Assembly: GCF_000019345.1 (NCBI RefSeq)
Contig: NC_010503.1
Span: 180,001 to 212,000, forward strand
DNA length: 32,000 nt
From: Ureaplasma parvum serovar 3 str. ATCC 27815
GTDB taxonomy: Bacteria > Bacillota_I > Bacilli_A > Mycoplasmatales > Mycoplasmoidaceae
Direction: 5' to 3'
Numbering within the stretch: the stretch's first letter is position 1; the number at the start of each line of letters is the position of its first letter. The position numbers are program-made. Positions 12,001-18,000 of the stretch are shown in pieces.

Positions 12001-15000
12001 TCATGAAATCGTTGATTTAGACAGTGATTTAAAAATTAAAATCTATGATTTAACATCTAAGGATAGTATTGTTTTAGATTATGACAAAATCATTACTGAT
12101 TATAAAGTTGATACAAAAAAATATGAAACGATTAAAAAAGGAACAACATCAACACGAATAACATGAAGTGGAGCAGATAAATAATGGTTAAAGACGATAA
12201 ATTAGTGCCAAGCATTAGATTATTAACACCAAATGAACTAAGCGAACAATGAGCTAATCCAAATAGCGAAATTAATCAAATCACACGTGCTGTTTTGACC
12301 ATTCAAGGAATTGATTTAAAAGCCATTGATTTAAACCAAGCAGCACAAATTATTTATTTTTGCCAAGCAAATAATTTAAATCCACTAAACAAAGAAGTTT
12401 ATTTAATTCAAATGGGCAATCGTTTAGCACCAATTGTTGGTATTCATACTATGACAGAACGTGCTTATAGAACTGAACGATTAGTTGGTATTGTACAAAG
12501 TTATAACGATGTTAACAAAAGTGCTAAGACAATACTAACAATCAGATCGCCAGGTTTAAAAGGTCTTGGAACTGTTGAAGCTGAAGTATTTTTAAGCGAA
12601 TACAGCACGAATAAAAACTTGTGATTAACAAAACCTATTACCATGTTAAAAAAGGTGTCTTTGGCCCACGCATTGCGTTTAAGTGGCTTATTAGCGTTTA
12701 AAGGTGATACGCCTTATATTTATGAAGAAATGCAACAAGGCGAAGCAGTGCCAAATAAAAAAATGTTTACACCACCAGTTGCTGAAGTAATTGAACCAGC
12801 AGTTGAAAATATAAAGAAAGTAGATTTTAATGAGTTCTAATAACTTTGATAATAATATGCCACGTATTGAATTTAAAAAAATGCCACTAACTTTTATTAG
12901 ATTAAATACGAAAAAAAGTAATAACGCACCCTTTGTTTCAGGTAGTTTTTGATTAGCAGATAAAGTAAATGCGAACGTTTATTTTAGTGAATATTTAATG
13001 GAACGTATTGTTCCATTTGAAAACAATAAAACTAATATCGTTATCTTAGAAAATGTTTCATGTTATATAAATTTTAACTGAGAAGAAAAACGAATTATTA
13101 TGCGTGTTGTTTCATTTGATAATATTTTTTACAAGCATCAATTAAGCGAACAACAAACTATTGATTTTGTGAGTGCTGAAAAAGAATATAACTATCAAAC
13201 ACAAACAGTTAATTCTTATAGTAATAGTGATGATGAAATTGAAATTATTAACTGATTAGAAAGTGATGAACAAAAAGCATATTTTGATAGTCAGTTAATG
13301 TTTATTGATTATAAAAACCAAGGCTTTTTTAAAAATAAAACAATGCCAGATAAACTAAAAAATAACGCTAATGCTTTAGAACTTTATAAACAAATTATTA
13401 AATTAGATTTAGAAGCATTTAGTGGTTTATACAACGGCTTAAAACCATTTGAAGCAGCAAATAAATTAATTGAAAAAGGCTATATAACACTTAACGATTT
13501 CTTTAAATATGCGATCTAAACAATGACATTTGAGCACACAAGATGCTAATTTAGCAAATAAAAAATATGATTATATTTACTTTAGGGGTGTTAATCAACT
13601 TTATTTAAAACGTCTTAAAAAAAGTAGTAATAAGTTTTTTGTTTATAAAAAATGTAAAATCGTACCACGTATGATATCAAAACATTTAAATAACGACCAT
13701 TTAATTAACGTTAATGATTATGTACCACTAACCAAAGAATTTATTAAAAAAAGCGTTGAAAAAGAAGTTAAACATTATCTAAGGTTTATATCTTATGAAA
13801 ACAAAACTAAACAAATGCCTGAACTAATTAATTTTTTAGAAAAATCACTTGAAGATAAGTTATTTATTGTCGCAAAAGATTATGATCCTTTATTTTCTGT
13901 GTTTTTACGTTATTACATTCAAAGTTTAATAGAAAAATATATTAATGAATTATGAATAAATGAGTGATAGGAATCGATTTATCAACAACAATAACAGGAG
14001 TTGCTATTTTAAGAAATGAGCAGATAATTAAAACCTTTGCTGTTGCTTTTGATAACTTTAATGAAAAGAATTTATATAACAACGTTATAAGACTTATTAA
14101 AGAAATTAATTTAAATGTTTGATTATTAGCTGATGATGATTATTATATTGGTATTGAAGTTGCTAACTTTTCAAATCCAAAACTAACACAGCGTTTTTCA
14201 ATTTATGCTGGTATGATTATTGCGTTAATGTCACAAGTTTTAAGAGATTTTAACGCTGAATTTAAAATGTTTAATGCGAATGCTTGACAGTTAAAAATAC
14301 CACAAATACAATATAACACATTGCGTAAAGATCGTAAATTAATTACTAAAAATTTAATGATTAAAACATTTAATATTAAAAGTAATTTAAACGAAGACGA
14401 ATACGACGCCTTAGCGATTGCTTATTTTTATGATAGTATTAATTCAACGCTAGAACAAGAAGAGATAACTAAGGCTAAAAAAATAGTTAAAATGAATAAA
14501 GTTAAACAGCAGTTATCAATTAGTAAAAAGATTAATAAACTGCTTGAAAAGAAAAGCAAACTAAAAAAAGCAACTGCGATATCAAAAGTTGATGAACAAA
14601 TAGAAGAATTAAAGAAACTAAATAAATAATGTTATAATATTTATCTCGTAGGTAGTCATACTATCATTTGCTAAATAGTATAACTAGAATAAAAAAAGGT
14701 GTTAGTTGAATCTAGCACTTTTTTATTTTAATAATTTAAAACAAATTATATATTATGTTATAATATATACACTAGTACACGTTGATATAACGCTTACGTG
14801 TTAAAATAAAATAGCGTTATTCCTTCTCTTCTTTTTTACAAAGATTATTAAAATATTATTTTTTACTTAAAAAATAATCTTTCTGATTTATTAAACAATA
14901 TTGGACAAATATATTTTTTGCTTAAAGTACGCCCAATGGCGTTGTTTAATTAATCTTTCTCACCACTTATTAAATAAACGACTGCTAAAACGTCCTGATA

Positions 15001-18000
15001 GCGTTTTTTAATTATTTATTTGAATTTTTGAATGTTAAATTTCAAAATAAACTAAGCAAGCCTGATAAACTTGCTTTTTTTATTGTCTTTTGGTATAATA
15101 TTATTGTCCATTATCTGGTATTTATATTAGGTCTTTGGGCTATAATTCTAAATGTATTATAATATTGTTGAAAACAAAAAACACGCTCCGTTAAAGCGTG
15201 CTTAATGTGTTAGTTTAGGTTTTATTATCTTATTTTCTTAAACTTATTAGGATTTGGATTATTGTTAAGATTATTACTATTAGGTCTGATAATTCCATAG
15301 AATCACCCCCTTTTTTTAAAAGGTTATGGTGTATTCCTAAACTAACAATAATATTATAATATATTTTTTACACTTTGTCAATACTTTTTATATATAAATA
15401 TATAAAAATGTGGTATAATTTAAGTGGCTATTACTTATTTACGACTGGTAGTAGCAAAATCTTTATTATTTCAGTTCCTTAATGGTTGAAATATAAAAAA
15501 GCCACCCTTTAGCAAGGTGGTTTTTATTTTGTCTAATAATCGCTTTTAATACGTTTTAAATATTCGATCTCTTCTTCTAATTTGCGTTGTTTACGTCTTG
15601 ATAGATAACTATGTCTGATATCATCAATAAACGCCTTTGGATCTAATATACCATCCTTAATTAATTTGGCTAGCATTAATCTAAATCTTAGCATTAGCAT
15701 TAATTCAAATACTTTTAATGGAATTGATAACGCTGTTATTAAATATCCAAGCACTGAGAACACTAAACCAAATAATGCGGTTGGGTCTTGTCAGTTGATG
15801 TGTTTTAATTTATCAAACAAACTCTTAATCTTGTCATTGAAATTAAAAAATGGTACAAACACAATAATCATAGCAAACGCAATTACAAATATTAAAATAG
15901 CAATTCATAACATCAAGCGTTTTTTATTAAAGAAAAATAATTCCTTAGTAATCGCTTTGAACTCTTGTTTTGTCATCTTTTATAATCTCCTGTTCTAATC
16001 GCTTAACTTTTTGTTCTTGCTCTTGTATTTTTAATTGCTTTTCTTGTTGTTCTAGTTTTTTTAATTCTTCATCCAATGTTTTGTAATTGTTAGAACTTAT
16101 AACTGCTTTAATATTTTCAACACTAATATAACGATTACGTATTTGTTCAACTAGTATATCTAAGGCTTCGAACTCTTCTTTACTTAAATCCCCGTACTGG
16201 TGCATTTTAGCAACAGTTCGCCATAATGTTTTTAATGTTGGTAAAAGTGTTAACATTGAAATAATTAAATTAATAAATCCAATAGTCATAAAGAATGGAA
16301 AATAAAACTTTTGTTCTTTTACAAATAACACAAATGCGTTATCATTTGGTAGTCCAGCAATTAAATAAGTAGATAATAAAGCTAATCCTAAAAATAACCC
16401 TGAAATAATTGAACTTGTTAAATAAATCAGCTGTACTTGTTTTTTAGAAAACTTCCATTCTTTGTTTTTAAACTTATTTTTATTGTTCATCATTTAAAAT
16501 ACTCTCCTTATTTTGCTTGTATAAATCATTTTGAGCCTTTTTTATGCTTCTTTTTTGTTCGTTAATAGCTTTTCATTCACTTTTTAGTTTGTCTTGTTCT
16601 ATGCGAGTTTTTAGATGTCAGTTTTTGCCTTCTGTTGTAAATCGTCAAAAGAACGGCGATATTGCGAAAAAATCAACGCAACCACAAATGATATAAGCAA
16701 ATAAAACAACTAAAAATAATTGCCATTTTTTCGTACTTCCTAGTTTTGGAAATTTTGATATCATTCAGTCTCATAATGTGGCTTTGTCTGTATATTCGCT
16801 TTCTTTACCAAAAAATACAAACGATGTCTCACCAATTTTAATAAAAAACGAACAAATTAAAAAAATGGTTCATAATGTGGTTAGAATTCATAGTCATAAA
16901 ATACGACGATTAATATATTCTTTCATTAAATTATTCTCCTACATAAATTGTTCTAACACTTCATTCATAATTTAATCCAACTTCAAAGTTTGTAGCAAAT
17001 GTTTTATTTACTATATCTATTAATCACAAATCAACATTAACACCAGATTTTTCAGCATTAACACGAACGACTAAAAATTGAGGCTGATATTGATTTCACA
17101 ACAGGATTTGTTGTTGTGTTTCTCCACTATCAGATAACATGTTATTACGGTCTGTGTTTCTATCAAAAGAAAACGTTAAACTATAATCTTTATCACTTCA
17201 ATCAACACTACTGTTATTAAAATTTAATGATAGATACCATTTAAAAATTACTTCATGATTTGCCATATTTGGAAACGTACGTTTAATATCAGGTCATGGT
17301 ATTGTTTTATTATCGCCATATTCTTCATCACGACCAGTTCATTTAAAATTCTCTGGTAATCGAACACGTCCAGCATAATATCATTGTGAATGAATTTTAT
17401 AGTTGTTACTGCTTTTTTTGTTTTCTAAGTTTTTAATCTTAGATTCAATTGTTGTAATAGTTGAACTATTAGCATTATTTGCTGTTTGTACGCTATTAAT
17501 TTTGTCGTTTAAACTTGAATAATTACTTTTAACTTTATTTTCTAAATTAGATAATGTACTTGATGCTGTTGATTGTTTATTTTCTAATTTAATATACTTT
17601 TGTTCTAAATTATTTTTAGTTTCTTTTAATGATGTTTGCAATTGTAAAAGATTAGATGTATTTTTAGCAATTGATTTATTCATTCTTGGAATAATACCAT
17701 CATTTTCAGGTTTATCAGTGTTTCAATCTAATCGTTCTAGTTTTACAGTGCCAAAAGGTCAAACTGTATCAGAACCTTCTCTATTACCAGCAGATACGTC
17801 ATTAATTAAATATTTTATTAAGTTATCATAATTTTCACGAAAACCTAACATTCCTATTAGTGCAGTGTTTTTAAAACTTTCTAAATTAGATGTTAAAGCA
17901 TCAACATTAGCACTATCACCTTTTTCACCCTTTGGACCAGTTTCACCTTTTGGACCAATTGGACCTTGTATTCCAGGTTCGCCTTTTTCACCTTTAAATA

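Follow-up and report, generated by a model that had tools for sequence, protein, structure and literature searches.

A predicted type I toxin-antitoxin-like cassette at the junction of the early and late operons of a Ureaplasma prophage

The stretch of DNA considered here, in the following the window, comprises 32,000 nucleotides of the genome of Ureaplasma parvum serovar 3 str. ATCC 27815 (NC_010503.1, positions 180,001 to 212,000 of the forward strand) with a G+C content of approximately 25% and harbours a prophage of approximately 20.5 kb. At the junction where the early operon on the + strand and the late operon on the - strand of this prophage converge, in the gap between the genes UU157 and UU158, lies an island of 903 bp with 24% G+C, the core of which (15091-15381) we propose, with moderate confidence, to be a type I toxin-antitoxin-like cassette that lacks annotation, with the terminators of the two operons and further small RNA units on its flanks. 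Open reading frames (ORFs) were read throughout in genetic code 4 (TGA = Trp), which was adopted because table 11 fragments the genes and code 4 gives long ORFs, among them ORFs of 871-1,275 amino acids (total length of the ORFs of at least 80 amino acids, 13,031 amino acids in code 4 versus 8,983 in table 11).

Transcription signals of the junction island

An earlier sequence-only reading had described this interval as an ORF-poor island with at least five extended -10 or consensus promoters and five intrinsic terminators, an observation which is confirmed. All promoter motifs are present, namely four extended -10 sites of the form TGNTATAAT, all of them on the + strand and read as TGTTATAAT in units A and B and as TGGTATAAT in RNA D and unit F (Table 1), and the perfect TTGACA-17-TATAAT promoter on the - strand, one of just two promoters in the window that match the consensus at 12 of 12 positions. 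The whole 32-kb window contains just seven TGNTATAAT sites (binomial p 2e-5 for the four in the island), and composition-matched simulations predict 0.21 for the island, with none of 5000 reaching four. As a loose sigma-70 scan showed no enrichment (28 promoters found versus 22.7 expected), only the strict motifs are counted. Five terminator-like hairpins are located inside the island; a scan of the surrounding 3 kb gave six versus 0.6 expected, and the remaining 31 kb of the window holds 11, mostly weak ones.

The claim that no ORF exceeds 22 codons stands for ATG starts, the longest such ORF in the gap having 22 codons, and also in code 4 the gap is free of long ORFs; it does not stand for TTG and GTG starts, which give 21-44 codons, with none above 44. 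These latter ORFs were rejected as genes, as they are without a Shine-Dalgarno sequence and are frameshifted, truncated or deleted in relatives. Relatives of the prophage, below given by handles such as L014, were reached via homologues of the flanking proteins in Ureaplasma genomes, in ENA and Logan assemblies and in one metagenome contig, and their islands measure 636 to ~1,240 nt. The promoter and terminator elements are kept among them; in the promoter at 15411 TG and TATAAT are fixed, with N being G, A or T. As to the proposed series of small RNAs, a stack of small independent transcription units is supported, but the island is not protein-free, the 22-codon ORF being the element with the best support.

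The peptide gene, its folded mRNA and a convergent RNA

The 22-codon ORF on the - strand is very probably a genuine, conserved and structurally locked peptide gene. Its Shine-Dalgarno sequence, which can also be written as GGGGGUGA and is located between the 5' untranslated region (UTR) and the ORF of the predicted mRNA, has a pairing energy with the 16S tail of -15.6 kcal/mol. This puts it first among the 1,086 ATGs of the two strands; among the annotated genes the best value is -10.8. When the 32-kb window was scanned blindly for hydrophobic ORFs of 14-40 codons with a strong Shine-Dalgarno sequence, this ORF alone was returned. Ureaplasma prophages hold 19 instances of the cassette, the eight ORF sequences of which encode seven peptides of 22-23 amino acids (for example MNEFEIITILLRIIQIMISLIK, MDKDKLIAILIILIEILISIVKN, MTLYEIITLILSTISIIITLVKK and MNNDKLIALLIALIELLIILIK). 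The ORF is intact in all 19 despite many indels around it, and nonsynonymous divergence (pN) is lower than synonymous divergence (pS) in nearly all variant pairs, with pN 0.05 versus pS 0.23 and 0.33 versus 0.64 as examples. A hydrophobic core (57-73% hydrophobic) and a C-terminal Lys or Lys-Asn are common to the peptide variants, most of which also carry an acidic residue towards the N-terminus. None of the genomes examined has an annotation for the peptides, which indicates that genes of ~22 codons escape annotation, and none of the seven is present in a collection of 15 billion proteins.

The predicted fold of the window peptide mRNA has a free energy (dG) of -41.5 kcal/mol and a z score of -5.2; the four mRNAs tested against shuffles gave z scores of -5.2, -5.7, -6.5 and -5.4, with none of 200 shuffles as stable. 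In this fold the 5' and 3' ends of the mRNA pair in a clamp which encloses the entire ORF, and the Shine-Dalgarno sequence sits in a local hairpin. The same arrangement recurs in all 14 distinct variant mRNAs, each of which combines a 9-13-bp 5'-3' clamp, a Shine-Dalgarno-sequestering hairpin, the sequences of which differ, and a terminator. Within the clamp, changes on both sides turn U-A into C-G at positions 6 and 8 and A-U into G-C at position 9, and in a five-sequence alignment 92.7% of the clamp cells pair versus 32-51% in slid controls. As MAFFT misaligns the 3' half of the beta-type cassettes, the clamp pairs were read from the individual folds.

Opposite the peptide gene, an extended -10 promoter would direct the synthesis of a candidate antitoxin, RNA D, towards the terminator of the peptide mRNA. 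Cassettes occur in two backbones with unrelated terminators, alpha (ACACGCU...AGCGUGU) and beta (CACUAAC...GUUAGUG), and in both of them such a promoter is directed towards the peptide gene at a distance of 60-100 nt past the terminator, as TGGTATAAT in alpha and as TGTTATAAT in beta. This convergent TGNTATAAT promoter and the shared terminator are kept in every intact cassette, with a degenerate second copy in L014 as the sole exception. RNA D with the predicted start would enter the shared hairpin and thus, by geometry, match the 3' end of the mRNA with perfect complementarity over 36 nt or more. Its 5' part (the 70 nt before the overlap; 15100-15178, and the equivalents in L014, L025 and L028) is almost invariant across the alpha cassettes, the peptide ORFs of which differ at roughly 40% of positions. 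This invariance, together with the MTLYE peptide, which is found paired with both the alpha and the beta 3' module, suggests modular recombination of ORF and 3' modules.

Table 1. Features of the junction island and its border genes, in positions of the window.
Feature	Position	Strand	Remarks
Last early gene UU157, RuvC-like Holliday-junction resolvase, left border of the island	13952..14629	+	PHROG 827/1770/159, E ~3e-5; exact UU157 match
Unit A: promoter TGTTATAAT (14630-14638), stem-loop, terminator 14693-14724 (both strands)	14630..14731	+	dG -20.6, z -3.4
Unit B: promoter TGTTATAAT (14756-14764), 5' hairpin domain (ACACGU/ACGUGU, UAACGCU/AGCGUUA)	14756..14838	+	
Two-copy direct repeat TAATCTTTCT...TTATTAAA (AATAATCTTTCT / TTAATCTTTCT, each followed by TTATTAAA)	14872-14884, 14948-14960	.	
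Strong terminator AAGCAAG...CTTGCTT with T-run	15054..15083	+	ends + strand transcription before the cassette
Candidate RNA D: promoter TGGTATAAT (15091-15099), predicted start ~15106, into the shared terminator hairpin 15179-15203	15091..15203	+	
Terminator of the peptide mRNA, 11 bp	15203..15179	-	U-run to 15168
3' clamp half, 11 nt just upstream of the terminator	15219..15209	-	
Peptide ORF	15298..15230	-	encodes MELSDLIVIILTIIQILISLRK
Shine-Dalgarno sequence GGGGGTGA of the peptide mRNA	15310..15303	-	inside hairpin
5' clamp half, nt 1-11, GUUAGUUUAGG	15346..15336	-	
Predicted peptide mRNA, 175-179 nt	15346..15168	-	start 7 nt past the -10 box
Promoter of the peptide gene, perfect TTGACA-17-TATAAT	15353..15381	-	kept as TTGA[CT]A-17-TATAAT in all cassettes
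Unit F: promoter TGGTATAAT (15411-15419), predicted ~100-nt RNA, two stem-loops	15411..15527	+	dG -27.9, z -3.8
Last late gene UU158, 147-aa membrane protein, right border of the island	15533..15976	-	exact UU158 match

Neighbouring units, relatives and the prophage

The cassette shares the island with further units of differing conservation. Unit A, which probably doubles as the early-operon terminator, is missing in L014, L015, L017 and L025. The hairpin domain of unit B is kept in all island types, with substitutions giving G-U pairs that fit the + strand only, and its fold is weakly better than that of shuffles (z -1.2). In the terminator which precedes the cassette the stem is kept and the loop is replaced, and copy2 lengthens the stem in a compensatory way. 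Unit F, back-to-back with the peptide promoter, ends in a bidirectional terminator (15502-15520) common to the late operon; its promoter is present in all close relatives as TG[G/A/T]TATAAT, and in tandem islands the equivalent promoter faces the terminator of the upstream cassette. Between the two back-to-back promoters lies a near-perfect 24-bp A/T palindrome, TTTTTATATATAAATATATAAAAA (15385-15408), of which L014-type islands have a 22-bp version and which could be an operator or plain (TA)n-like low complexity. An action of RNAs B and F on ribosome-binding sites through a UUCCUU anti-Shine-Dalgarno motif was considered and rejected, as the motif reads UUCUUUU in relatives and is part of a dispensable insert. 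The direct repeat noticed around 14874 and 14951 does exist in two copies. The segment it flanks is exactly the one of 76 nt that L027-L029 lack, and L014-type islands are without the segments in which the two copies are located, so that the copies are regarded as recombination or indel endpoints.

Distant relatives, with RuvC proteins 36-44% identical, differ at this junction. L021 possesses another ORF-poor island of promoter-hairpin units, 617 nt in length (5133-5750) and identical in L022, in which a short + strand unit and a - strand unit of ~200 nt converge on one bidirectional terminator with a geometry as in the cassette; this island has a G+C-rich structured segment (~5335-5385) and is without a peptide ORF. 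In L003 and L024 the junction comprises ~170 nt, and L020 encodes here (6656-6907, - strand) an 83-aa membrane-anchored coiled-coil protein, the gene of which has a very strong Shine-Dalgarno context, AAGGAGGTGAATTCTATG, like that of the peptide genes. With its contents varying in this way, the junction appears to be a general landing site for small accessory units. L014 carries a second, diverged copy of the island (16717-17760, 83% identical) just past the integrase, following a 133-aa DnaB_C-like ORF the 3' end of which resembles the 3' end of UU158; this copy, which encodes the peptide variant MNEFEIITILLRIIQIMISLIK and has an RNA D promoter with a 2-nt deletion, may be the remnant of a second element.

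Of 14 serovars, 9 carry the insertion UPA3_0153-0176, which has been described as a likely phage, and some authors have proposed the prophage to be a pathogenicity island (PMC3511179); a Ureaplasma phage has not been isolated so far (PMC13375369). The literature gave no mention of the UU157-UU158 spacer. The integrase at 9048 is followed by early genes on the + strand, which include an exonuclease, RecT and the RuvC-like resolvase, and the terminase at 28197 heads the late genes on the - strand, the last of which encode three membrane proteins and end at 15533. Besides the two border genes, exact protein matches identify FtsY (AAF30547) and the capsid gene (UU164). No relatives were found in INPHARED by megablast with the prophage, or in IMG/VR with a RuvC profile, the capsid protein and exact DNA words, nor did the RuvC profile detect any in GTDB genomes, where its single match was an unrelated Clostridium; the terminase matches only distant phages at ~24% identity.

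At the ends of the prophage a 7-bp direct repeat, ATAATCA, is present at 9012-9018 and 29480-29486, and two same-strand, repeat-rich, surface-protein-like ORF fragments (8328-9059 and 29441-30040, both - strand) flank the element, which looks as if it had integrated within a single host gene. The neighbour of the integrase end in L014 and L017 is a DnaB_C-like fragment instead, which indicates a different integration site. The closed attP junction is present in the 20,488-bp Logan contig ERR13600001_388 (L001 5040-5130; L001/L035), the ends of which overlap by 30 nt, and the contig is therefore considered a circular assembly, which suggests that the Ureaplasma phage excises or replicates. The second perfect promoter of the window, TTGACA-18-TGTTATAAT (29398-29427, + strand), lies inside the prophage ~55 nt from its right end, directed outwards and antisense to the split host gene. 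A 747-aa late protein (16931-19174, - strand) contains a collagen-like Gly-X-Y run of 26 residues, as is often found in tail fibres.

A type I toxin-antitoxin-like reading and its alternatives

In the mechanism we propose, the consensus promoter would give rise to the mRNA for a 22-residue hydrophobic peptide, which would be kept translationally silent by the pairing of its first 11 nt with 11 nt just upstream of the terminator and by the 5'-UTR hairpin that buries the strong Shine-Dalgarno sequence. RNA D, initiated at its extended -10 promoter, would read into the same bidirectional terminator, and the duplex of RNA D and mRNA would lead to decay, in the way RatA acts on txpA. The putative toxin, if made, would insert into the membrane of the wall-less host. 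The rest of the island consists of the terminators of both operons and of the further small promoter-hairpin-terminator units A, B and F, which would have been gained and lost via recombination between short repeats.

By its layout the cassette seems closest to txpA/RatA and the other prophage-borne systems of Bacillus subtilis, by the locking of its mRNA closest to hok and aapA1. With TxpA/RatA, located on the skin element, and with the likewise prophage-borne BsrG/SR4, BsrE/SR5 and YonT/SR6 it would have in common a small membrane peptide, convergent genes and an overlap at the 3' ends, which in txpA/RatA goes along with RNase III; moreover, txpA possesses an unusually strong Shine-Dalgarno sequence and a prophage-like location (PMC8167048), both as in the Ureaplasma cassette. 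On the other hand, the Ureaplasma overlap perhaps extends over just ~36 nt, the 5'-3' clamp is an additional element and the host is a mollicute using code 4. Sequence similarity to this group was not found, and the Ureaplasma peptide of 22-23 aa is far shorter than TxpA with its 59 aa. The hok mRNA is subject to fold-back inhibition. Pairing of the 5' and 3' ends, in the aapA1 mRNA a long-distance interaction, locks the full-length mRNA in hok/sok of plasmid R1 and in aapA1/isoA1 of Helicobacter pylori and is accompanied by Shine-Dalgarno sequestration (for AapA1, PMC8167048). The antitoxins of these two systems target the 5' or translation-initiation region, whereas the Ureaplasma candidate converges on the 3' end, and their activation needs 3' processing; the Ureaplasma cassette is without a mok-like leader ORF and without similarity to Hok or AapA. 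RNAs which converge on a shared bidirectional terminator are also known from fst RNA I/RNA II (par of the Enterococcus plasmid pAD1), and in the window cassette the direct repeats TATTAGGTCT and ATAATTC would let RNA D pair with codons 1-9 in an fst-like manner. No claim is made for such a pairing with the initiation region, where the match of 10 nt at codons 4-7 is equalled by 26 of 500 shuffles, and a match to the Fst family was not obtained. Cassettes are present singly or in tandem, one or two per island, with tandems in L025, L030 and L031, which fits with type I loci being often multi-copy, as exemplified by zorO/zorP (PMC8167048).

Several observations weigh against a toxin-antitoxin function. 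The covariation of the clamp derives from 5-7 distinct sequences only and, with this small sample, is taken as supportive, short of conclusive. On the + strand the U-tract following the shared hairpin is weak, and the near-identity of the RNA D region may reflect selection or recent recombination. In the other six cassettes RNA D shows no complementarity to the initiation region; none of the seven peptides has a match in Pfam or NCBIfam, including Fst, TisB, Ibs, Ldr, Hok, ShoB and TxpA, at E up to 10; and the peptide is not carried by any of the distant phage relatives, as seen in L021, L003 and L020. This distribution, and the lack of conserved RNA D complementarity outside the terminator, would also suit an accessory ('moron') membrane peptide of the phage, which could be a superinfection-exclusion factor or a lysis or holin-like effector adapted to a host without a cell wall, and which would be regulated by the structure of its mRNA without forming a toxin-antitoxin pair, the convergent RNAs being by-products or insulators. 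In favour of it are also the location of the gene, which follows the late operon immediately and on the same strand, behind three late membrane-protein genes, and the possession of its own promoter and terminator, as is usual for morons. We nevertheless regard this alternative as rather unlikely: the convergent extended -10 promoter is kept in both cassette backbones despite their unrelated sequences, a late lysis gene would simply sit within the late operon, and a double translational lock on an mRNA with a consensus constitutive promoter is characteristic of a product that has to be kept off, which fits type I toxins better (PMC8167048).

The sequence-only reading itself had, by analogy to the c4 RNA of P1 and the CI RNA of P4, likewise small RNAs from a non-coding region of temperate phages, considered RNA-based immunity or lysogeny control, in which RNAs A, B and/or F would repress the early or the late operon. 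No repressor-like protein is recognised in the prophage at the level of Pfam and PHROG, which is absence of evidence only; units B and F are kept in all close relatives, RNA F converges on the late-operon terminator, and the distant L021 has its own promoter-hairpin island at the same position. The target sites and the Rfam family which define c4 and CI were, however, not found, with no Rfam match for the window at the gathering score or for the island and L021 at E up to 10, and the conserved core of the island encodes a peptide. Complementarity of the RNAs to the rest of the prophage is at chance level, as an exact k-mer search against the rest of the window gave only A/T-rich matches near the shuffled expectation and the shared 14-mers are A/T runs, several of which fall in host genes beyond the borders of the prophage. 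When RNAs A, B, D and F were scanned against the prophage with RNAduplex, the output consisted of long AT duplexes rich in loops, which were judged uninformative. Moreover, relatives can do without unit A and without parts of B/C, and L003-type relatives manage with their short junction. Nothing positive supports RNA-based control, though no repressor was recognised among the phage proteins, and we consider it improbable. Still more speculative is a combination of these ideas, in which the island would be the whole decision and lysis module, with the peptide as lysis effector in a wall-less host and RNAs D and F restraining, in antisense, the peptide mRNA and the late operon at its 3' end, all of which together would replace protein repressor and holin-endolysin.

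The suggestion of a replication origin with iterons and AT-rich unwinding elements could draw on an AT-rich, non-coding island with several short direct and inverted repeats, in a prophage for which no replication initiator or origin was identified elsewhere. The iterons themselves did not materialize, as repeat families in the island have at most two or three short copies, with no tandem array and no family of at least three regularly spaced repeats, the only notable repeat being the two-copy one in segments that relatives lack, and the sign change of the cumulative GC skew coincides with the switch of the coding strand; this leaves an origin as the least credible of the explanations. Hardly more credible is that two operon terminators are simply accompanied by chance promoter-like words in an AT-rich spacer. 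TATAAT-like words are common at 24% G+C, and the unenriched loose scan would agree with it, but the excess of strict TGNTATAAT sites on one strand, the preservation of TG and TATAAT around a variable N and the conservation of the peptide ORF and of the mRNA fold do not. On balance, the interpretation given by the sequence-only reading is partly supported.

For the type I toxin-antitoxin-like cassette favoured here, the literature gave no previous description of type I systems from Mollicutes, and the mollicute toxin-antitoxin systems shown to work are protein-based, of types II and IV (PMC8562856). If the cassette is confirmed, its very short peptides would represent a new family of type I toxins, borne by a near-minimal human pathogen, and the compact peptide with its RNA off-switch could serve counter-selection or containment in Ureaplasma and Mycoplasma, which lack genetic tools.

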